From a virus (lineage: Duplodnaviria; Caudoviricetes), in IMG/VR virus record IMGVR_UViG_3300042549_002778, positions 1 to 62,167 of that record: a DNA stretch of 62,167 nucleotides; one strand, given 5' to 3'. Position 1 is the stretch's first letter; every line of letters begins with the position of its first letter. The position numbers were made by a program, and so were the translations under genes. Below the pieces are notes generated by a model. That model searched no databases. It was not told the origin of the DNA and saw nothing but the letters and a program-made list of their open reading frames with translations. Shown piece by piece: positions 15,630 to 48,413 of this stretch.

Positions 15630-16128
15630 CGATAAAGCGATTGTCGCTGTTTCGGATATTATGCGCGCATATCCATACGTCTCATTCCCTAATACTGAAT
15701 GGACAGATGAAGTTCTTCAGCCATTTGGCTATGCGGTTTTACATCGCCCTAATACCCATCCATTCCCATCAGAAAATGAGATTTTAGTTGATGGGGAGCC
15801 TTACGAAGAAGGCGGTAAATGGTATTTACCTTATATTGTTCGCCCTCTTACACCTGAAGAGATTGAAATCAGATTAAATAATTGGCGAGAATCAGCATAC
15901 TGCACTCCATTTCAAGGTCGCGTGGCACTAGCCAATGCTGGGCTTTTGGAGCAAATTGAGTCAATTATTAATGTTCCAGAAACCAACCAAGAGGTTAAAA
16001 TTGCTTGGGAATATGCTATAGAATGGCGTCGCATGTCTCCCATGATCTTGAGTATGTCTACCGCGTTGGGATTGACTGATGAGCAAGTTGACGAGCTTTT
16101 TAGGAGCGCACAAGAAGTTTCCGCCTAA
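15610..16128 (+). CDS. Tail fibre assembly/chaperone-like protein
   Basis: C-terminal WEYA....R.SP......LGLTDEQVDELF; follows the fibre genes. Confidence 0.65.
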   Translation: MAYIKIDDKAIVAVSDIMRAYPYVSFPNTEWTDEVLQPFGYAVLHRPNTHPFPSENEILVDGEPYEEGGKWYLPYIVRPLTPEEIEIRLNNWRESAYCTPFQGRVALANAGLLEQIESIINVPETNQEVKIAWEYAIEWRRMSPMILSMSTALGLTDEQVDELFRSAQEVSA

Positions 16129-16171
16129 CATCTCTATGGCCCATGCCGCGCTGGCAAATGAGGGGTTGATC

Positions 16172-18361
16172 ATGCCGATCAGTTCAGAAAATGGTAAGCA
16201 ATACATCAAAGAGTTTATCTCAAATATTAAGCATGAAAATATGCTTGATATTGGTGTTGGATGCGGCACATATGCCAACATGTTCCCGAATGCCAAATGG
16301 ACGGGAATAGAGGTTTGGCAACCTTATGTCGAAGAGTTTGACCTTGAGTCAAAATATGAGAATCTTATTATAGCCGACGCGAGAGAAGTCAATTTTACCG
16401 GCTCATATGATGTTGCTTTTCTTGGAGATGTCCTTGAGCATATGACCTCTTTCGAGGCGGCTAGGCTTCTTTCCAAAGTCCGTGACGTTTCTGATTATGT
16501 GATTGTAAGCATTCCTTTGGGCCATCATCCTCAAGGTTCTGTCAATGGCAATGAGTTTGAGCGCCACATAGAGGATTGGGACGATGGCAAGGTTAAAATC
16601 CTCTTTGGTCAGCCATCAGCAAGTCATATAGAGGGTGAGATAGGCGTTTATATTTATAAGCGTTCTGTCTGCAAGGTCCCTAAGATAATTCATGTTGTTT
16701 GGGTTGGAGATGAATCAAAGCGCCCAAATCATTACATCCGTTCCTGGGGAGATTTAAACCCTGGTTGGGATGTAAAAATTTGGGGCAACAAAGAATACAA
16801 CGACATTGATTGGATCAATAAATCTTACATGCAGAAAATGTGGGATGCCGGGTCATTGCACGGCGTTGCCGATCTGATGCGTTACGAGATTCTATTCCGC
16901 GAAGGCGGATTTTGCGTTGATGCTGATAGTGAATGCGTCCGACGATTGGATGATGATCTTTTTGACGAGCGAACTGTCCTCACCTATGAGAATACGGAAA
17001 CTCGACCGGGTCTTATCTCCGTTGGTTATATGGCTTCTGTCCCGGAACTTCAGTTCTTTCTTGATATCATTGAGGACATTCGGGATACGCCAGAGGATAA
17101 AATCCTCACGGATCATGCTTGGTTTTCAGTTGGTCCCCGCCGTTTGACGGATAATTACGAGAAGATTAACCCTGAAAATGTTAAGATTCTCCCCGACTAC
17201 ACTTTTATACCCAAGCACTTTGACGCCCCGGAATATAAAGGCAATGGCGCTGTTTATGCTAAGCAGCATTGGCTCACGACCAATAAAAACAAGAAGAATT
17301 TTAAAATCTGCGTTTACGCTATTAGCAAGAACGAAGTTCAGTTTGTTCAGCGCTTTTGTGAGTCGGCAGTTGATGCGGATATGATCCTGATAGCTGATAC
17401 GGGATCAACGGATGGTACGGATACCAAAGCTAGAATTCATGGTGCAACTGTTCATTCTATCTGCATAAGTCCTTGGCGTTTTGATCACGCTCGTAATGCT
17501 GCTCTTGCTCTTATTCCTAAAGATATTGATATTTGCGTTTCTCTTGATCTGGATGAGGTTTTAGAGCCTGGATGGCGAGAGGAAATTGAGCGGGTTTGGA
17601 CTGAAGGCACTACGCGCTTGCGTTATATGTTCGACTGGGGGATGGGAATAAAGTTTCAATATGAAAAAATTCATGCTCGACACGGATACCATTGGCACCA
17701 TCCTTGTCACGAATATCCCCGCCCGGATGGTCGAACTAATGAACAATATGCACATACAAACCGGCTTCTGGTGTCCCATCATCCAGACCCTACAAAAAGT
17801 CGTGGCCAATATTTGGATCTACTCAAACTTTCAGTTACCGAAGATCCTTTCTGTCCAAGAAATGCGTTTTACTATGCGCGTGAACTTTCGTTCCATATGC
17901 AATGGGAAGAGTCCATTGCTGAATGTAAACGCTATTTAGATCTTCCTGGGGCAAGTTGGCACAACGAGCGCTGCTATGCCTATCGAGTGATGGGCAAGTG
18001 CTATGAGGCCTTGGGGCGGAATGCAGAGGCGGAGACGGCTTATCATATGGCCTGTGCGGCGGCGCCGGTGACTAGGGAGCCGTGGTGCGAGTTGGCCATG
18101 CTCATGTATCGGCTGAGCCGGTGGGAGGAATGTTTTGCTTATTCCATGCGGGCTTTGAAGATTATTCATCGGGAGCAAGTCTATACCTGTGATCCGGCTG
18201 TCTGGGGTCATTGGGCGCATGACCTTGCCTCTATTTCGGCGTGGAATTTGGGTATAAAAGACATTGCTTTGGAACAGGCTAGATTAGCGCTTGAAAAGAC
18301 CCCAAATGATCCTCGTCTTAGGGCCAATGTGGATTTTATGGAGGGGTTGTCATCGGCCTGA
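16172..18361 (+). CDS. SAM methyltransferase + DxD glycosyltransferase + GT2 glycosyltransferase + TPR fusion
   Basis: LDIGVGCG...GDVLEH; IPK-type VPKIIHVVW...ADLMRYEIL..EGG..VDAD; ISKNE...DTGSTDGT...FDHARN...LDLDE; helical TPR tail. Confidence 0.85.
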   Translation: MPISSENGKQYIKEFISNIKHENMLDIGVGCGTYANMFPNAKWTGIEVWQPYVEEFDLESKYENLIIADAREVNFTGSYDVAFLGDVLEHMTSFEAARLLSKVRDVSDYVIVSIPLGHHPQGSVNGNEFERHIEDWDDGKVKILFGQPSASHIEGEIGVYIYKRSVCKVPKIIHVVWVGDESKRPNHYIRSWGDLNPGWDVKIWGNKEYNDIDWINKSYMQKMWDAGSLHGVADLMRYEILFREGGFCVDADSECVRRLDDDLFDERTVLTYENTETRPGLISVGYMASVPELQFFLDIIEDIRDTPEDKILTDHAWFSVGPRRLTDNYEKINPENVKILPDYTFIPKHFDAPEYKGNGAVYAKQHWLTTNKNKKNFKICVYAISKNEVQFVQRFCESAVDADMILIADTGSTDGTDTKARIHGATVHSICISPWRFDHARNAALALIPKDIDICVSLDLDEVLEPGWREEIERVWTEGTTRLRYMFDWGMGIKFQYEKIHARHGYHWHHPCHEYPRPDGRTNEQYAHTNRLLVSHHPDPTKSRGQYLDLLKLSVTEDPFCPRNAFYYARELSFHMQWEESIAECKRYLDLPGASWHNERCYAYRVMGKCYEALGRNAEAETAYHMACAAAPVTREPWCELAMLMYRLSRWEECFAYSMRALKIIHREQVYTCDPAVWGHWAHDLASISAWNLGIKDIALEQARLALEKTPNDPRLRANVDFMEGLSSA

Positions 18362-40821: not shown

Positions 40822-41225
40822 CCATACGCAGGCAGATAGAGTCTGGAATACAGCGGGGGATCGTTCAATACATCCGATCCGTGCTGCCAAGGGCGGTTCT
40901 GTTGGCAATCCCTAACGGGTCTCAAAGAACAGCTTCAGGTCGCCCTGCGAATGCTGTTCCGGGCTTTTTGGCCGGCGCTCCAGATTTGGTTCTGGCACTT
41001 CCAAATGGCCATGTTGTGTGGATAGAGGTCAAGTCTCCGGTTGGTCGGCTGAGCGATAATCAAAGGCATGTTCATGCTTTGTTAAATTCTATAGGGCATG
41101 ACGTAATATTGGCTAGATCAATAGACGATATTCGGGAAGCGTTTGCGTATTTAAAAATAAAAACAAAAGACAAATGGAATGGAGAGCAGGAAAATGACAA
41201 GGACACAACTGGTCTGGAAACCTGA
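40815..41225 (+). CDS. VRR-NUC domain nuclease
   Basis: ESGIQ..I; IPNG; GAPDL...IEVK...GRLS..Q. Confidence 0.9.
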   Translation: MVAIRRQIESGIQRGIVQYIRSVLPRAVLLAIPNGSQRTASGRPANAVPGFLAGAPDLVLALPNGHVVWIEVKSPVGRLSDNQRHVHALLNSIGHDVILARSIDDIREAFAYLKIKTKDKWNGEQENDKDTTGLET

Positions 41226-41787
41226 ATGGATAGATCACGCAAGGTTGATCTTGGCTGCTGGCGGTAGCTTTGGCAACGCTGCAATCGGCGTTAGCAATAA
41301 ATTTAAAGTTACAGTCAGCAGAAATGCAATGATCGGAAAGTTTGGCAGGCTGAAAGAGGCTGGCGAGCTTAATTTGCCGGAACCAGAAATCTGGAGGGGC
41401 AAATCAATGGTTACTCTTGTCAGCTACTGGAACAGGGGCGTATCAGCATCCGAAATAGCCAACATCTTTGAGGTAGAGACGCCTACCTTGAGAAACAAAG
41501 CATACATGTATGGTATGCACCCGCGCGGATCAGAAGCGGGTTTGAGGGTAATAAAAGACAATCCAAAATATCTACAGAACAAGGCTCCTGCGTTTGTAAC
41601 AAAGATGAAGGAGTTTATGAATCCAAAGGCTCTGGGTCTGGACATAATGGATCTGGAAAGAAAAATGTGTCGATTCGTAATTGGCGACAAACCATTCTAC
41701 TTTTGCGCAGCCCCGGTAGAAGTTGGTTCGCCAGTCCCTTACTGCTCATATTGCAGGAAGGTCATGTATGTTCCAGTAAAAAGGTAA
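41194..41787 (+). CDS. gcrA: GcrA-like cell-cycle regulator
   Basis: W...VSRNAMIGK..RL N-terminus; DL...CRFVIGD..F.FC.......PYC..C C-terminus. Confidence 0.8.
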   Translation: MTRTQLVWKPEWIDHARLILAAGGSFGNAAIGVSNKFKVTVSRNAMIGKFGRLKEAGELNLPEPEIWRGKSMVTLVSYWNRGVSASEIANIFEVETPTLRNKAYMYGMHPRGSEAGLRVIKDNPKYLQNKAPAFVTKMKEFMNPKALGLDIMDLERKMCRFVIGDKPFYFCAAPVEVGSPVPYCSYCRKVMYVPVKR

Positions 41788-41791
41788 GGTT

Positions 41792-42316
41792 ATGTTGGTC
41801 GAACAGCAAGAAAGAGACAACATCGTCGATCAATTGGAAGAATTGCACAATTCGTCCGGCGTGGCCATTTTGAAAGTCGCGTCTAATGAGTTGCGCAGGC
41901 TGTATTCTATCCTGAATGAAAGGGTCGCCAAGGTTGACGTAAAACAGGCTGAAAATATTAACGTCAGAATGGCCGTTGTAATGAGAACTTGCGCAAAGTA
42001 TTTCACTCTATCCAAAGAGGAACTTACGTCGCATCAGCGGATGGCCTGTTATAACATGCCACGTCACATAACCATGTATGTGGCACATAAAATCACAAAA
42101 CTATCTTACGTGCAGATAGGCAAGTGGTTTGGAAACCGGGATCATTCGACGGTTATCCATGCCTGTCACAAGATCCAGAACATGATTGAAGACAACAATC
42201 TCGAATGTCTGAAGCAAGTAGAGCAGATCATCGCTCTTTGCAAAACAGAAGCCCTGCGTGAACATCAACTCATAGAGGATGCCAAGATATGTCAGAAGAA
42301 AATTCCGAACTTGTAA
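41792..42316 (+). CDS. DnaA C-terminal (domain IV) DNA-binding protein
   Basis: PRHITMY......LSYVQIGKWFGNRDHSTVIHAC.KI. Confidence 0.9.
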   Translation: MLVEQQERDNIVDQLEELHNSSGVAILKVASNELRRLYSILNERVAKVDVKQAENINVRMAVVMRTCAKYFTLSKEELTSHQRMACYNMPRHITMYVAHKITKLSYVQIGKWFGNRDHSTVIHACHKIQNMIEDNNLECLKQVEQIIALCKTEALREHQLIEDAKICQKKIPNL

Positions 42317-42612
42317 GTCTCAATGAACATGATCTCAGGGTTGCGATCCTAAAGACCGTAGAGGGCTGCACGTCATTTCTGGATGGCGTGGTTCAGGAAA
42401 ATAAAATGGACGCCGCCCAGATGATCATGGTTTCCGTAAACGTGGCGGCTCATTTGATGGCCAGAAACATTCTGTTTGCAAACGGACCAAAGGGTCGCGT
42501 CGATCTGTGCAAGCATATGTTGTCAGACGCCGCTGAAATCATTAATGACGCCCGCAATCACATAGACGTTTCGGAGCGTGAGCTTAACAATACCATCATC
42601 CGGCCAAATTGA
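42289..42612 (+). CDS. Hypothetical protein
   Basis: RBS GAGG; operon position. Confidence 0.6.
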   Translation: MSEENSELVSLNEHDLRVAILKTVEGCTSFLDGVVQENKMDAAQMIMVSVNVAAHLMARNILFANGPKGRVDLCKHMLSDAAEIINDARNHIDVSERELNNTIIRPN

Positions 42613-42629
42613 CCGGGCCCAGAAAGGAC

Positions 42630-42667
42630 GACGGCGGCTTGACTAAAAGCCAGCCGCCGTCTACTCT
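42630..42667 (+). promoter_or_regulatory. Sigma70-type promoter within a 10-bp inverted repeat
   Basis: TTGACT-17-TACTCT; gacggcggct...agccgccgtc. Confidence 0.65.
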
Positions 42668-42731
42668 GGGAAAGGTTCGGGGCGGCAACCCCTGACCGAT
42701 GACACTGGAAGAGAGCGAAGGAACCAACGCT

Positions 42732-42962
42732 ATGCCATCGGCTAGCAATACAAATACCCCCAAAAAGCCCCGTGATCAAGATGCCGCCTTCGTTGAGGCG
42801 GACATTATTTCGAATCTGCGGCTAACTGCGGACTTTGCCGAACTGGCAGAGCGCCACGCGGCTATTTTCGACGAAAACGGTTTCCGCTATTGCGTTGACC
42901 GATTCCTCGATCATGCCCGACTTGTGTCTACAAACATCAAGAAGCTGAGGGATTTAGGCTAG
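42732..42962 (+). CDS. Hypothetical protein
   Basis: RBS AAGGA. Confidence 0.6.
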   Translation: MPSASNTNTPKKPRDQDAAFVEADIISNLRLTADFAELAERHAAIFDENGFRYCVDRFLDHARLVSTNIKKLRDLG

Positions 42963-43300
42963 AGCTTAACAGTAATACGGAACCCGCAGATGCCGTCTGT
43001 CGGTGCAGCAATCCTGCCGTGAGGTTGGGCGCTGGTGCGGGTAACGAAGTGGCCGACCTACTTCTACGGTCGGGCGCAATGAGGCACCTAATGGCGTGCC
43101 AGTTCCTGTAAGTCGCCTGCATGGCTTATAGGGATCACCGATGGGTTGGGAATCTGTGGGAATGGGGGGTCAATGCCATCCGCCTCCTGCCGCAAGGCTG
43201 AAACCACAATGCAGGGGCGCTGACGGGGCTGGCTCCGAAAGTGCATCAACCCCCGGCAACGGGGGAATTGCGCCTTTAAAACCTCACCAAAAGTGCATCG
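42963..43300 (+). ncRNA. Candidate large structured ncRNA / replication origin
   Basis: At least seven stems, two GCAA tetraloops, G-tract; longest apparent non-coding stretch. Confidence 0.55.
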
Positions 43301-43302
43301 AA

Positions 43303-43866
43303 ATGACCGACGATTGGGACAAACCCACGCCTATCAGGAACACCACGATTGCTGACGTTTTGAAGGACGGAAGCAAGCGGGATTACCTGAACGATGAGTT
43401 CAAGAGACTTGCTGACAGGGGAAGACAGGCAGAACAGGCTGTAGCTCGATACCTTGAGCGTAACGGGTTTGAGGTTCGGTTGCCTGAGAAGAAGATACGT
43501 GAGAACATCGAAGACAGACACAAGTTCACTGATGAGGGCGACTTGTTCTACCGCAAAGTTGGTAGTGAAGGTCACTGGCATAGAGTGGAGGTCAAGAGTC
43601 ACGATTACCGGACGCCGCCGTTTACTTGCATTGCAGACTTCCCGTTTAAGGATGTGATACTTGAGCGGGAACATCGGATGAAAGAATCGTTCCCATATGT
43701 GTATAAGTGGGTGATGGTTTCGAGTGATTTCAGATATGCTGCGGTTACGTCGTTGGAAAGCTGCATATACTGGTATAAAGAAACAAGAAAAAAGAGAAAC
43801 TACGGAACGACTGAGACAGATTGGTATGTTCCTGTCGGTCATACCAAGATCATAAAATTGGGATAG
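43303..43866 (+). CDS. PD-(D/E)xK nuclease-like protein
   Basis: G..AE..V..YL...GF; GDL...VEVKS. Confidence 0.65.
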   Translation: MTDDWDKPTPIRNTTIADVLKDGSKRDYLNDEFKRLADRGRQAEQAVARYLERNGFEVRLPEKKIRENIEDRHKFTDEGDLFYRKVGSEGHWHRVEVKSHDYRTPPFTCIADFPFKDVILEREHRMKESFPYVYKWVMVSSDFRYAAVTSLESCIYWYKETRKKRNYGTTETDWYVPVGHTKIIKLG

Positions 43867-43871
43867 GTCAG

Positions 43872-45359
43872 ATGGAGCTAAGACACTATCAGGCGGAGGC
43901 TATTCGTAACCTTCGCCAAGCCATAGCAAACAAAGAGAAGCCTGTTTTGTCGGCCCCAACGGGATCTGGCAAGACGCTGATTGCTTCGGAGATTTTTTCG
44001 TTGGCGAGGGCCAAGGGGAAGCGGGTTGTATTTGTCGTGCCATTCCTGTCACTGATTAATCAGACATGGAAGGCTTTTGAACGCGCCGGGATTGATGGTC
44101 GGGACATGGGGGTGATTCAGGCATCCCATGAGCTAACCGATTACTCAAAGCCGGTTCAGATTGCGTCGGCGCAGACTGTGGAGCGCAGGACGCTGTTGCC
44201 AAAGGCTGACATTGTGATTTTCGATGAATGCCATATAAAGAGGAAAATATACAGCCGCTGGATGCATGAGTCCCCGGATGTGTATTTTATCGGCCTGTCC
44301 GCCACGCCTTGGGCTGTCGGCATGGATGACATCTGGACGCGGATGATCATTGTTTCGACGCTGAGCGACCTGATTGAGGAAGGCCATTTATCGAATTTCC
44401 GTTACTACGCGCCGGCCCAGCCTGATTTATCCAAGGTCAGGACGCGGTTAGGCGATTATGTCGAAGCGGATCTTGAGAAGGTGATGGGTCAGGCTGACCT
44501 GATTGCTGATATTGTGAATACATGGCGAGAGAAAGCCAACGAGCGCCCGACGTTCTGTTTCTGCGTAAACCGTCGCCATGCCCAAGAGGTTCAGCATCAG
44601 TTTCTCAGGGCCGGAATCCCGGCTGGCTATGTTGATGCCTATACCCCGGTTGAAGAACGGGAGGCGCTGGTTGAGCAGCTTCGGCGGGGTGATCTGAAGG
44701 TTATTTGTAATATCGGGACAATGACCACGGGCGTTGATGCGCCGTTTGTGTCCTGCATTATCTTGGCTAGGCCGACCAAATCAGAGATGCTGTTTATCCA
44801 GATTGTGGGCAGGGGGCTGAGAACAGATCCGACGAAGGATCACTGTCTGATTCTGGATCATTCGAACACGGCGCTTAACTTGGGCCGCCCGGATGAGATC
44901 TTCCACGATCATTTCGTTTCGGGTAAGGCTGCGGAAGCGGGTGATAAGGCCAAGAAGGAAAAGGAAGAGAAAAAGCCGCGCCTTTGTCCGCATTGCAAAT
45001 TTGTGATGCTTCCCAAAGAAAAGGAGTGTCCATCCTGCGGATTTGTGATGCCGCCCCCGCAGAGTGAGATTGAGATCGCAGCCGGGGAGCTTTCGGAGCT
45101 TGGTCGCAACGGAGCCAGAGGCAAGGCTACGAAGGATGAGAAGCAGCGGTTCTTTAGTGGTTTGCTTTGGTATGCCCGTCAGCAAGGGTATAAAGTGGGT
45201 TGGGCAGCGAGGATCTATCGGGAGAAATTTGGCGTCTGGCCGCGAGGGTTGACAGACAAGCCAGACTTCCCTGATAGCGTTGTGTTCAAGTTCATTGAAG
45301 AGCGGAACCGGGCTTGGGTTAAATCCAGAAGAAATTCAATGAATGCGAGTCAAATATGA
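43872..45359 (+). CDS. SF2 DExH helicase with C-terminal Zn finger (RadD/YejH-like)
   Basis: LRHYQ, APTGSGKT, DECH, SATP, TGVD.P, QIVGRGLR, CPHC...CPSC. Confidence 0.92.
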   Translation: MELRHYQAEAIRNLRQAIANKEKPVLSAPTGSGKTLIASEIFSLARAKGKRVVFVVPFLSLINQTWKAFERAGIDGRDMGVIQASHELTDYSKPVQIASAQTVERRTLLPKADIVIFDECHIKRKIYSRWMHESPDVYFIGLSATPWAVGMDDIWTRMIIVSTLSDLIEEGHLSNFRYYAPAQPDLSKVRTRLGDYVEADLEKVMGQADLIADIVNTWREKANERPTFCFCVNRRHAQEVQHQFLRAGIPAGYVDAYTPVEEREALVEQLRRGDLKVICNIGTMTTGVDAPFVSCIILARPTKSEMLFIQIVGRGLRTDPTKDHCLILDHSNTALNLGRPDEIFHDHFVSGKAAEAGDKAKKEKEEKKPRLCPHCKFVMLPKEKECPSCGFVMPPPQSEIEIAAGELSELGRNGARGKATKDEKQRFFSGLLWYARQQGYKVGWAARIYREKFGVWPRGLTDKPDFPDSVVFKFIEERNRAWVKSRRNSMNASQI

Positions 45360-46690
45360 ACTATTACAATGAGTTTGACCCGTATGCCGCTGAATGGCTA
45401 AGGAATTTGATAAAGGCGGGACACATACCGAATGGAGAGGTTGATGTCCGATCAATTGTTGATGTTCAGCCTGATGACCTTAGAGGATTCACCCAATGCC
45501 ACTTCTTTGCAGGAATTGCAGGATGGTCGCACGCGCTCCGATTGGCAGGATGGGATGACGAAAGAGAAATCTGGACGGGTTCGTGCCCCTGCCAACCATT
45601 TAGCGTCGCCGGCAAGGGAAAAGGAACCGCCGACGAGCGGCATCTATGGCCTCACTTTCACAGACTTATTGCCGCCCGCAGACCAAAGGTCGTTGTTGGC
45701 GAACAGGTTAGTGGCAAGGCTGGCTATGGTTGGCTCGACGGAGTCCGACTTGACCTGGAAGGTGAAGGATACGCCTGCGAAGGATTTGATATTCCGGCTT
45801 GCGCCGTCAACGCGCCGCACATCCGGCAGCGATTGTATTGGGTGGCGCACGCCAGCAACTTCAGAACCCGGAGTTTCGCTGGACAGGCTTCGGACAGTGG
45901 ACGGGGAGCCGTGGACATTGGGACAGAGAGCCTACGACATGCAGACGGGACGCGTGGCTCAGGTTGGGCTGACGCACGAAATACTGGCAACATGGTCAAC
46001 CCCGACCGTGCAGGACAGCTCGAACAACGCCGGGCCTTCCCAATATCGCAGGAACAGTCAGGCGCTGAACGTGCAGGCAGCGGGGGGTCGTCCGGCGGGC
46101 AGGGCTTGGGACGAGATTCAGGCGGCAGCGACATGGCCCACCCCGACAGCCAACGACCACAAGGGTTCCGGCCCGACAGTGATACGTCAGGACGGCGTGG
46201 ACAGGACATTTCAGCGTCTGGACTATGCGGTAGAGCAGGGGATGGCGACATGGCCGACACCGGACACAGGACGGGACGAGACTGTGGAGAGCTTCGACGC
46301 CAGAGTGCAACGCATGAAGATGCGACACCCAAAAAAATCAGGGATGGGGTCGAATGGTCCGCTTCATATAGTGGCGCAGAGGATGACATGGCCGACGCCA
46401 CAGGCGAACAAGAACACCAAGAACAGCAAAGACCCCCAGCGGATGAAGGAGAATGGCGTCCAGACGGCGTTGGCGGATGCGGCATGGATTACAGACAAGC
46501 CGGCCCATGGGACGACGCCGAATGGCTCACAGGAGCCGACGGAAAAACGCGGCGCGCTAAACCCGGAGTTCGTCTCCTGGCTCATGGGGTTCCCGCCAGA
46601 GTGGGACGCCTGCGCGCCTACGGCAACGCCATCGTCCCGCCGCTCGCGGCAGAAGTCATAAAATCTTTCATGGGGACCGCAAATGGCTAG
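45356..46690 (+). CDS. C5-cytosine DNA methyltransferase, alpha chain
   Basis: FFAGIAG (I), PCQPFS (IV), EQV (VI), HIRQRLY (VIII), YGNAIV (X); low-complexity middle. Confidence 0.9.
   Translation: MNYYNEFDPYAAEWLRNLIKAGHIPNGEVDVRSIVDVQPDDLRGFTQCHFFAGIAGWSHALRLAGWDDEREIWTGSCPCQPFSVAGKGKGTADERHLWPHFHRLIAARRPKVVVGEQVSGKAGYGWLDGVRLDLEGEGYACEGFDIPACAVNAPHIRQRLYWVAHASNFRTRSFAGQASDSGRGAVDIGTESLRHADGTRGSGWADARNTGNMVNPDRAGQLEQRRAFPISQEQSGAERAGSGGSSGGQGLGRDSGGSDMAHPDSQRPQGFRPDSDTSGRRGQDISASGLCGRAGDGDMADTGHRTGRDCGELRRQSATHEDATPKKIRDGVEWSASYSGAEDDMADATGEQEHQEQQRPPADEGEWRPDGVGGCGMDYRQAGPWDDAEWLTGADGKTRRAKPGVRLLAHGVPARVGRLRAYGNAIVPPLAAEVIKSFMGTANG
45444..46661 (+). CDS. C5 MTase beta chain in the +1 frame (five W-x-T-P repeats plus motif IX)
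   Basis: RBS GGAGAGG before ATG 45444; LNPEFVSWLMGFP.EW resembles motif IX. Confidence 0.75.
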   Translation: MSDQLLMFSLMTLEDSPNATSLQELQDGRTRSDWQDGMTKEKSGRVRAPANHLASPAREKEPPTSGIYGLTFTDLLPPADQRSLLANRLVARLAMVGSTESDLTWKVKDTPAKDLIFRLAPSTRRTSGSDCIGWRTPATSEPGVSLDRLRTVDGEPWTLGQRAYDMQTGRVAQVGLTHEILATWSTPTVQDSSNNAGPSQYRRNSQALNVQAAGGRPAGRAWDEIQAAATWPTPTANDHKGSGPTVIRQDGVDRTFQRLDYAVEQGMATWPTPDTGRDETVESFDARVQRMKMRHPKKSGMGSNGPLHIVAQRMTWPTPQANKNTKNSKDPQRMKENGVQTALADAAWITDKPAHGTTPNGSQEPTEKRGALNPEFVSWLMGFPPEWDACAPTATPSSRRSRQKS

Positions 46691-47213: not shown

Positions 47214-47240
47214 AAAAATGCCCCGCGTCCGGGGCAGTCT
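47212..47240. terminator. Hairpin terminator between convergent units
   Basis: aaaaaaa-tgcccc gcgtcc ggggca; U-tract on the minus strand. Confidence 0.55.
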
Positions 47241-47376
47241 CAGGGAGGAAACTTAAAATACTTTCAAAAACCAATCTCGTCAATCTTGATTTATGATTTA
47301 AGTGAATGTAAAAAGATGAAGAACCATTCGGTTCTCCTTTTCAAACTTTCTTCGGGCAGGCCCCTGTCCTGAAGAG

Positions 47377-47419
47377 CGCCCCGCCAGCGTAGCTCCATTC
47401 CGCTGGTGGGGCCTTTTTC
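47377..47419 (+). terminator. Long hairpin with U-tract
   Basis: gccccgccagcg...cgctggtggggc followed by cttttt. Confidence 0.55.
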
Positions 47420-47621
47420 ATTTACGATATTTTTCGTATACAGCTTTCGCCTTGGCAAAGTGACCAAGGGTCTCAGACTCAATATCAGCCTCCGCAAACG
47501 GCTTGATTGCATCCAGCAGTTCATCAAACTTAATCTCTAGCTTGGCTATTTGCCAACGTAGTTCTGTTTCTGCCGGGTTGTTTTTCTTGACGCTGGTCAC
47601 GTCATAGATCGTCCGTTTCAT
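47418..47621 (-). CDS. Hypothetical protein
   Basis: Leftward mini-operon. Confidence 0.6.
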   Translation of the reverse strand: MKRTIYDVTSVKKNNPAETELRWQIAKLEIKFDELLDAIKPFAEADIESETLGHFAKAKAVYEKYRK

Positions 47622-47628
47622 GTTTTGG

Positions 47629-47829
47629 CTACTCTTGAATAGTCTGCTGGTTTTTCAAAAAGCGTATTTTTTTATGGAGCAATTCAATCGTCTCTTTCTG
47701 TTGGCGCAAACCCATAGCCGCGCCAAGCATAAGAGCTTGAGCTAGTTCGAGCTTATATTCCTGATCGACTTTATATGTTTCAAGCTGCTTGATCAGGGCT
47801 GGGATTTCAATTTTTGGATCATTCGTCAT
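47629..47829 (-). CDS. Hypothetical protein
   Basis: Leftward mini-operon. Confidence 0.6.
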   Translation of the reverse strand: MTNDPKIEIPALIKQLETYKVDQEYKLELAQALMLGAAMGLRQQKETIELLHKKIRFLKNQQTIQE

Positions 47830-48019
47830 CGGTATCGTCAGAAGGTTTGCCGTTTTTCAGAGCATCAACAATCCGCTCTGTCTGTTCATCAAGGCTTTCA
47901 AAGCCATTTGCCTGTCCGTAGATGTCTCGCAGGCCGGACAATTCATCGCGGATAAACATGAGTTCCGCACCGATATCTTTCAGGGCATCAAGTAAGGCTT
48001 CAAACTGATTATCATTCAT
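47819..48019 (-). CDS. Hypothetical protein
   Basis: Start MNDNQF with GAATGGAG RBS. Confidence 0.6.
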   Translation of the reverse strand: MNDNQFEALLDALKDIGAELMFIRDELSGLRDIYGQANGFESLDEQTERIVDALKNGKPSDDTDDE

Positions 48020-48109
48020 GTTCTTTCTCCATTCCGGGTTCCCCGGCGCTACGCTACCAACGCTGTCGGCATTCCGGTTTTTAGCCCGCGCGAGCCTCAA
48101 CCTTCTCAG

Positions 48110-48190
48110 GGAATGCGTCAAGATACTTTTTTTTGAAAATTTGTCAAATTTCTGTTGATTTGTATTCTACAAAATGTAAGATAGCTATAT
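48110..48190. promoter_or_regulatory. AT-rich divergent early promoter region
   Basis: TTGATT-16-TAAGAT (48155-48182); TTGACA/TTGACG on the minus strand; tttgta-ttc-tacaaa palindrome. Confidence 0.55.
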
Positions 48191-48209
48191 TGACGAATGG
48201 AGCAGTCAA

Positions 48210-48362
48210 ATGATCAAGGTTCGCAAAAACGCAAAAGTGAAGATTTGGAATGTCTATGCCTCGAATGGAGAAAGCCTTGGGCAGTATTCCTTCTACGTTG
48301 CTGAAGTGAAGGCTTACTTCCCCGGCTGCACAATTCAAAAGCAGAACGTCTATCTTCCGTAA
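48210..48362 (+). CDS. Small early protein (50 aa, not in track)
   Basis: GAATGGAG RBS; MIKVRKNAKVKIWNVYASNGESLG... Confidence 0.65.
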   Translation: MIKVRKNAKVKIWNVYASNGESLGQYSFYVAEVKAYFPGCTIQKQNVYLP

Positions 48363-48413
48363 GTCGAAACGGGCTTCAGCCCGTCTGTCGGTAAGGCCGG
48401 CACTGATGAGACT
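48362..48413 (+). ncRNA. Type II hammerhead ribozyme
   Basis: agtc-GAAA-cgggc ttca gcccg-UC^-tgtcggt aag gccggca-CUGAUGA-gact. Confidence 0.85.

Follow-up and report, generated by a model that had tools for sequence, protein, structure and literature searches.

A putative new RNA family in a polymorphic cassette locus of an uncultured lake phage

What fills the long spacer between two early genes of a lake phage, and what keeps its sequence so constant? The spacer lies in IMG/VR virus record IMGVR_UViG_3300042549_002778, which is complete at 62,167 bp and has direct terminal repeats (hereafter the window); judged from gene content, it comes from an uncultured tailed phage. A sequence-only reading had marked positions 42630-43300 as one large structured RNA with a G-tract, and had offered it as an RNA-primed origin of the ColE1 kind or as a new non-coding RNA partnered with the nuclease or helicase encoded downstream. 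The structured part turned out to be narrower. It covers 42963-43302 on the plus strand, a non-coding RNA of 340 nucleotides (nt) and 59% G+C that fills the spacer from stop codon to start codon, whereas 42630-42962 holds a promoter-like site, a leader and a 76-codon gene and is not part of it. We call this RNA type A. As far as comparative sequence evidence reaches, it represents a new phage RNA family and its site a polymorphic RNA-cassette locus.

The spacer as a structured RNA

The structure is taken as real because of comparison with relatives and not because of thermodynamics. The comparison covers full-length sequences of two type A RNAs, from the window and from the related record L002, and of three RNAs of a second type discussed below. 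Type A is 88% identical between the two phages, compared with ~73-78% for the flanking DNA; the nuclease and helicase proteins of L002 are 81% identical to those of the window. In bins of 60 nt, identity amounts to 95-100% at 43161-43280 and to 57-90% in the flanking genes. The RNAalifold consensus of both sequences contains 98 pairs, all of which are kept in L002: 88 are unchanged, seven are changed on one side, three on both sides and none is broken. When the partners were slid by one to three columns as a control, 38-44% of cells paired and double changes dropped to zero. All three double changes, together with two one-sided ones, are located in a 14-bp hairpin at 43102-43135 (TCCTGTAAGTC at 43104, GGCTTATAGGGA at 43123). 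The stems and G-runs picked out by the sequence-only reading are likewise all in place, including CCGACC 43053/GGTCGG 43068 and GGCAC 43083/GTGCC 43096.

Natural variants come from consensus contigs of four public lake and river runs, which did not enter the fold model. Ten sites in the RNA vary among them, and seven of these are unpaired in the model, though 58% of positions are paired; four of the seven are collected by one 5-nt bulge. The three variants at paired sites (43056 A>G, 43114 C>T and 43130 A>G) each convert a Watson-Crick pair into a G-U pair. Since such a change is neutral only on the plus strand, they point to an RNA read from that strand, and the latter two add further pair-preserving changes to the 43102-43135 hairpin. 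Between 43131 and 43275 no run contig differs from the window, and one contig carries 3 substitutions in the 340-nt RNA versus 20 in 363 nt upstream. In an RNA-library run (X24), a 241-nt contig of depth 2.3 lies wholly inside the RNA (43034-43274), with ends that coincide with polymorphic sites; the same run has no contig over the flanking genes, which at this depth is uninformative on relative RNA levels. This contig is a weak hint of transcription, DNA carry-over being possible.

No conserved reading frame spans 42963-43302 in the window and L002. The comparisons show the signature of a plus-strand RNA that is under strong selection and not translated. They also show a predicted layout in two parts, a 5' scaffold that drifts yet keeps its pairs and a 3' core of ~100 nt that is invariant. 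The suggestion of a new non-coding RNA has thereby gained ground, also with respect to known families. None of the 4227 models of Rfam 15 matched the whole window at gathering score, and with E-values up to 10 the best the spacer reached within 42500-43500 was 13.2 and 11.9 bits versus cut-offs of 70.7 and 48. The GOLLD, ROOL and RNAI models gave no match, and the other sequence types found at this site have no Rfam match either. In the literature we found no description of the element. An RNA survey of IMG/VR considers only motifs of 29-151 nt in at least three regions (PMC10690425), and a sub-motif of type A could be among those listed there.

The 5' scaffold domain (42983-43160) is delimited in the consensus by long-range closing helices, in which RNA positions 21-41 pair with 176-198, and encloses three arms; all ten pairs that vary between the window and L002 fall within it. 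The invariant core of the 3' domain (43148-43248, 101 nt) includes the CGCCUCCUGC/GCAGGGGCG stem and a GCAA loop. It shows zero differences in L002 and in the contigs of all four covering runs, while the flanking genes differ at ~20-25% of sites. Two stems named earlier, CGCCTCCTGC 43181/GCAGGGGCG 43211 and GCC-GCAA-GGC at 43189, are confirmed in this region. A terminal hairpin, CCCCCG-GCAA-CGGGGG (43250-43265), is nested in a GUGCA/UGCGC helix and carries no covariation information because it is invariant. The remaining A/C-rich tail (43275-43302) is variable, with 43276 T>C present in three runs. It extends up to the start codon without a Shine-Dalgarno (SD) motif and holds the second of two copies of AAAGUGCA.

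The G-tract consists of runs of 3, 3, 3 and 6 at 43143-43169 on the plus strand. In the consensus model the first two runs form the 3' strand of a long-range helix with 42993-43003, the third belongs to the outer closing helix and G6 stands at the beginning of the main 3'-domain helix. Two L002 substitutions, 43145 G>A and 43147 T>C, turn a U.G into a U-A pair and a G.U into a G-C pair; the first run is lost (GGG to GGA) with pairing kept, and only two G3 runs and the G6 run are retained. Because these changes break a run but improve two pairs, what is conserved is pairing rather than a quadruplex motif, and a conserved four-run G-quadruplex is unsupported.

Some details of the fold allow alternatives. 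The stem ACCCGCA 42982/TGCGGGT 43036 lies outside the consensus model and would cross the long-range helix; L002 keeps its five outer pairs, with one compensatory change, and gains two U-U mismatches. A pseudoknot is a possible way for the model to accommodate it. The run-contig variants fit both the local hairpin CCGACC/GGUCGG and a longer model helix, whereas the L002 change 43022 A>G fits the longer helix only. Type A also contains an internal duplication, with UCCUGCC-GUGA-GGUUG at 43012-43027 and UCCUGCC-GCAA-GGCUG at 43185-43200, 173 nt apart; in L002 the first loop reads GUGG. GGA motifs, counted with a CsrA sponge in mind, number 5 in type A versus 7.6 expected, and 12 versus 8.3 in the second type.

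One slot, alternative RNAs

Five further records, three IMG/VR contigs and two metagenome contigs, share the promoter hairpin and the small gene; they were retrieved by pattern and protein searches, and synteny is preserved in all of them. Their slots differ in content. L002 carries type A. L004, L020 and L009 carry type B, which measures 365-388 nt and is non-alignable with type A. L016 carries type C, longer than 450 nt, whose first 60 nt are 68% identical to type B. No similarity of type A to B or C was detected by BLAST. The predicted fold of type B comprises 109 pairs, five of them kept through both-side changes, and a closing helix joins its two ends, the first nucleotides after the small-gene stop pairing with a purine-rich 3' strand, GGGAGAGGGAGCUAUG. 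Type B ends in a mini-ORF (open reading frame) of seven codons (MPK..., L004 2417-2440), whose stop lies 2 nt before the AUG of the next gene; frame and stop (UAG or UAA) are kept in three variants, namely L004, L009 and a loose contig end from run X8. Type C is represented by a single cut contig with plus-strand ORFs of 67 and 86 aa, and we do not claim it as non-coding.

The exchange can be followed within single samples. In a contig from run X11, 382 nt of different sequence stand between 42966 and 43304, and loose contig ends of run X8 resemble the two ends of type B; the swap therefore occurs within closely similar flanks. Each of two complete genomes carries one type only, as no copy of type A was found in the type B genome and none of type B in the window. 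The comparison across records and runs shows type A as one allele of a cassette locus, placed between the same stop codon and the next start codon. In a contig of run X16 that ends at 43301, the sequence reaching the nuclease start is A+T-rich and belongs to neither of the two types; it may be a further slot allele.

Pattern searches of viral contigs returned type A only in the one known relative and type B only in two known records. A search with the VRR-NUC protein encoded nearby found 3 close and 22 distant relatives, and BLAST over 52 loci gave no RNA copy beyond the known ones. The small-gene pattern hit 6 stretches and the metagenome pattern 12, three being true in each case. Among 185,579 species genomes neither type was found, two exact 20-mers matching coding DNA by chance only, and the promoter pattern was found in none. 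Two gene-caller products, P0001 (241 aa) and P0003 (274 aa), translate through type A; P0003 differs within the translated stretch, so at least one more divergent type A variant exists.

Possible roles of the RNA

The reading we lean towards, while holding it somewhat short of probable, is that type A is an RNA module acting autonomously, which early in infection binds a factor of the host or the phage. It would be read on the plus strand as part of an early replication and recombination operon served by the promoter-like site at 42639. The module would then be cut out of the early mRNA or outlast it and act as RNA itself. Its invariant core may bind the factor in question, and its allelic diversity may mirror different or changing partners in host takeover or counter-defence. 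We favour such a module because the RNA is large, has an invariant core, does not depend on the next gene and is polymorphic within populations. The nuclease gene follows the RNA in four of the five records with type A or B. Independence is indicated by L009, where type B precedes other genes and no nuclease homologue was found in the 9.9-kb locus, a finding that also leaves the proposed partnership with the nuclease unsupported.

An RNA of this kind would be a small analogue of the ornate phage-borne RNAs GOLLD and ROOL, the closest kind known, which type A resembles in being carried by phages, G+C-rich and multi-helix, and in having no known partner or function. ROOL measures ~580 nt. In GOLLD, as in type A, the 3' region is conserved and the 5' region less so; GOLLD came to light in metagenomes from lakes and the sea, and many of its members exceed 800 nt (PMC12286853). 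The slot RNAs, at 340-390 nt, are half that size or less. The window contains 0 tRNA genes, though GOLLD and ROOL are often near tRNA islands. Type A furthermore sits inside an early operon between protein genes. GOLLD and ROOL form homo-oligomeric, RNA-only cages. Other comparisons come from phage early operons, where the P4 CI RNA, the c4 RNA of P1 and P7 and the HK022 put RNA are made from the transcript that they control. P1 and P7 differ in c4 and are hence heteroimmune, which provides a precedent for allelic RNA types. However, type A is larger than these RNAs of ~70-80 nt, and no lysogeny genes were found in the window by PHROGs and minus-strand ORF scans.

A broader and rather unlikely extension is that a group of freshwater phages shares a hypervariable RNA-cassette locus, with interchangeable, unrelated large RNAs serving as early effectors, which could be decoys or RNA-only machines. 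Their targets could be host factors or defences that differ between strains, which would keep the polymorphism within one lake population. In a bolder variant the RNA types may be alternative replication primers that define compatibility groups among co-infecting phages.

Large, highly constrained RNAs of unknown function are, to our knowledge, rare, and GOLLD, ROOL and OLE proved structurally surprising. The locus adds a candidate that is compact (340 nt), has clearly bounded domains and contains an invariant core of 100 nt. Its natural allelic replacement by an unrelated fold, which is not known from GOLLD, ROOL and OLE, offers a ready comparison for function. If the RNAs act on host factors, large folded RNAs would join proteins, tRNAs and short repeats as means of phage counter-defence or takeover; with a function in cis, they would rank as exceptionally large regulatory leaders of phage replication genes. 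Annotation is affected as well, since gene callers currently translate through type A.

Several observations weigh against an autonomous module or the fold on which it builds. The folding energy of type A is not above chance, with z = -1.65 for the whole spacer on the plus strand (-0.03 on the minus strand) and z of -0.3 to -1.0 in 170-nt windows across it, no better than the coding flanks; types B and C give -1.19 and -0.91. The shuffle control is weak with two sequences (63/500). Covariation is drawn from two full type A sequences plus the run-contig variants, and the model was derived from the same two sequences. For type A, neither RNA ends nor processing sites were found, nor a promoter of its own or a terminator. 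In addition, the RNA fills the spacer exactly from stop to start codon, as is typical of leaders, and the 3' strand of the type B closing helix has GGGAG-type motifs and an AUG, as in a translational switch. Finally, all five judgeable records have a structured RNA in the slot, and the lack of any empty or protein-filled slot is explained by a required role in cis no less well than by an accessory one.

A function in cis is accordingly a serious, if less likely, possibility. Here a leader or intercistronic element would sense a ligand, a protein or translation of the small gene, and gate nuclease-helicase expression through translation, stability or elongation; types A and B would be non-homologous sensors with the same job. 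Riboswitches offer parallels, since different SAM and preQ1 classes do the same job, classes replace one another upstream of the same genes, and long leaders such as the T-box exist. Type A shares with them the occurrence of unrelated folds at the same operon position, an invariant core with covarying helices and direct contact with the start codon, up to which the RNA extends in 5/5 judgeable records. The type B closing helix would hide an SD-like stretch and the AUG of the mini-ORF, whose frame is conserved. In type A one copy of AAAGUGCA lies in a helix and the other before the AUG, and both are conserved in L002 despite the variable tail; the early leader, moreover, is rich in other conserved hairpins. 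Against this, none of the 12 lowest-energy suboptimal folds listed, which lie within 1 kcal/mol (window) or 2 kcal/mol (L002) of the minimum, contains the helix that the second AAAGUGCA copy could form instead. At 340-390 nt with a 100-nt invariant core the RNA is large for a leader and larger than riboswitches; no terminator-like expression platform was found in it, nor, in type A, a clear anti-SD platform. The downstream gene is not constant, as L009 illustrates, and allelic swapping of unrelated sensors in one phage population is unusual for riboswitches.

We consider it improbable that the element is a ribozyme or another RNA-processing element, which would direct cleavage by itself or by host RNases and separate the mRNA of the small gene from that of the replication genes. 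Its position between cistrons of a long operon, the invariant core and the GNRA loops would suit such a role, and large complex folds are often catalytic. However, Rfam 15 gave no match to self-cleaving ribozymes, group I or II introns or RNase P, even at E-values up to 10.

The RNA-primed origin with which the sequence-only reading began is also improbable, and it has gained nothing beyond the absence of a recognised primase or polymerase. A transcript would here form a hybrid via its G-runs and be processed into a primer for host polymerases, as transcripts prime replication in ColE1 and at the primary origin of phage T7. The element does lie within the replication module, is transcribed towards the helicase and has largely conserved G-runs. 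Like ColE1 RNA II, it is structured, several hundred nt long and furnished with G-runs, and it belongs to a replicon without its own primase. But the primer RNA II is paired with an antisense RNA I, and in the spacer neither an antisense gene nor a minus-strand promoter (42963-43302) was found, nor a minus-strand fold signal (z = -0.03) or an RNAI match. G-runs 1-3 and G6 are paired in the model, and substitutions preserve pairs and not runs. Moreover, the slot sequence is replaced by a non-alignable one within near-identical flanks, and type C has negative GC skew. GC skew along the window tracks the orientation of the genes; its turning points lie at ~34 kb and 40.3 kb rather than at 43 kb. 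DnaA boxes number 18 in the window versus 12 expected, none of them in the spacer, and neither iterons nor an AT-rich stretch were found there.

The expectation that the genome lacks its own initiator held only in part. No polymerase, primase or integrase was found among the 13 ORFs of at least 390 aa or among 10 shorter minus-strand ORFs scanned. Yet a gene for a protein with DnaA domain IV, a helix-turn-helix (HTH) domain, lies 1 kb 5' of the RNA (41792-42316, plus strand; Pfam Bac_DnaA_C 2.5e-23; phrog_30669 'replication initiation protein' 2.5e-5). Its product is a candidate initiator or regulator by homology, and the presence of this gene is a further point against the RNA-primed origin. 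Homologues occur in 5/5 related records at 38-49% identity, regardless of which sequence occupies the slot.

The favoured RNA module also has to be set against readings that involve no RNA function at all. An element acting as DNA (an origin bound by protein, a site for packaging or a hot spot of recombination) would explain the 101-nt invariant block, the two TGGGAAT copies 10 bp apart and the proximity of recombination and replication genes. This is very improbable given that the wobble changes are strand-specific and that pairs are compensated; the genome shows no enrichment of TGGGAAT (10 versus 11.7 expected), and no origin-typical repeats were found. Least credible is a protein-coding role, either as an N-terminal nuclease extension from ATG 43141, whose frame in the window is open into the nuclease as in the fused products P0001 and P0003, or as a separate small protein, because in L002 a stop closes this frame, which does not match that of the nuclease, synonymous-type differences are absent over 100 nt versus ~20-25% of sites in neighbouring genes, and the conserved N-terminus MTDDWDKP begins at 43303.

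Upstream elements and gene neighbourhood

The upstream third of the region has conserved features of its own. An inverted repeat at 42630-42661 (plus strand; 1 match in the window versus 0 expected) has a 10-bp G+C stem whose loop contains the -35 hexamer. In 6/6 related records the stem is invariant while the loop varies, and no local fold signal is stronger than that of a 170-nt window around the repeat (z = -5.5). An operator is one possible role for the repeat, a 3' stabiliser at the end of the upstream transcript another. The promoter proposed at 42639 is present as a promoter-like site, TTGACT-17 nt-TACTCT (42639-42667, plus strand), with the -35 and T1/A2/T6 of the -10 retained in 6/6 records, though a consensus promoter scan missed it, the -10 matching at 3/6 positions only.

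Within the leader, RNAalifold on six records predicts a hairpin at 42674-42697 (plus strand), in which GGUUCGGGG and CCCCUGACC enclose a 6-nt loop; of its eight pairs, one varies on one side between U-G and U-A, and none is broken. The small gene has its start codon inside a second hairpin, of seven pairs (42729-42746, plus strand). Two of these pairs are kept in L016 through changes on both sides (GCUA/UAGC to GUCA/UGAC), with one codon also altered, which suggests, from sequence comparison, that translation of the small gene is structure-controlled. This gene (42732-42962, plus strand; 76 codons plus stop, MPSAS...) is real, because differences concentrate at third codon positions (14/7/35 by position to L002, 14/6/35 to L009). 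Its N-terminus is conserved in 6/6 records, and an upstream ATG at 42699 is probably not the true start. The product has a sub-threshold match in Pfam only and none in PHROGs.

The RNA is embedded in a plus-strand block that runs from a VRR-NUC nuclease through a GcrA-like protein, the DnaA-domain-IV protein and a 107-aa ORF to the region under study, and continues with a 187-aa nuclease-like gene, a superfamily 2 (SF2) helicase and a C5 methylase. Nuclease-like and helicase genes thus follow the RNA as anticipated. The former (43303-43866, plus strand) starts at ATG 43303, not at 43141. Homologues are few, 7 in a set of 5.8 billion clustered proteins, and none of them has a Pfam domain; the protein itself has no Pfam or PHROG match. 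In 6/6 aligned sequences D80 and K98 do not vary, and position 96 holds E or D. In a predicted structure with a mean pLDDT of 74, PD-(D/E)xK nucleases lead the Foldseek ranking, all with E of at least 0.08 and none at or below 0.001. Because of the conserved D...(E/D)xK motif and these weak fold matches, the product is probably a PD-(D/E)xK-type nuclease, a class defined by such a motif on an alpha-beta-beta-beta-alpha-beta core fold. The helicase (43821-45359, plus strand, exact start uncertain) is assigned by Pfam ResIII (2e-23) and Helicase_C (1.8e-13) and by phrog_16 (1.8e-92). INPHARED phages gave no DNA match to the window, and their nearest helicases are ~40% identical.

Elsewhere the window encodes virion and packaging proteins (terminase, portal, SU10-type adaptors, tail fibres and a tail lysozyme), its own sigma factor, a dCTP deaminase and two DNA methylases, together with a minus-strand recombination block of Erf, a RecE-like exonuclease and two HNH genes. 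The adjacent GcrA-like and DnaA-domain-IV-only genes (41179-42316) both resemble bacterial cell-cycle and replication regulators, and the DnaA-like protein is 38-49% identical among relatives, whereas the neighbouring VRR-NUC protein is ~80% identical. The C5 cytosine methylase gene (45356-46690), between the helicase and a 176-aa ORF, occurs only in the window; in L008, L009 and L012, the three loci reaching that far, the 176-aa ORF lies close behind the helicase. A stretch of ~1.2 kb further on (47214-48405) has only short ORFs on both strands and ~70% identity in relatives. It includes an inverted repeat (48023-48034/48263-48274, 12/12 complementary) and could hold small genes, another RNA or an origin. 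Among the virion genes, 16079-18361 encodes a 760-aa protein with methyltransferase, DXD glycosyltransferase and TPR matches, and 57460-61038 a 1192-aa protein with DUF6321 and a sub-threshold match to an ADP-ribosyltransferase (ART-PolyVal).

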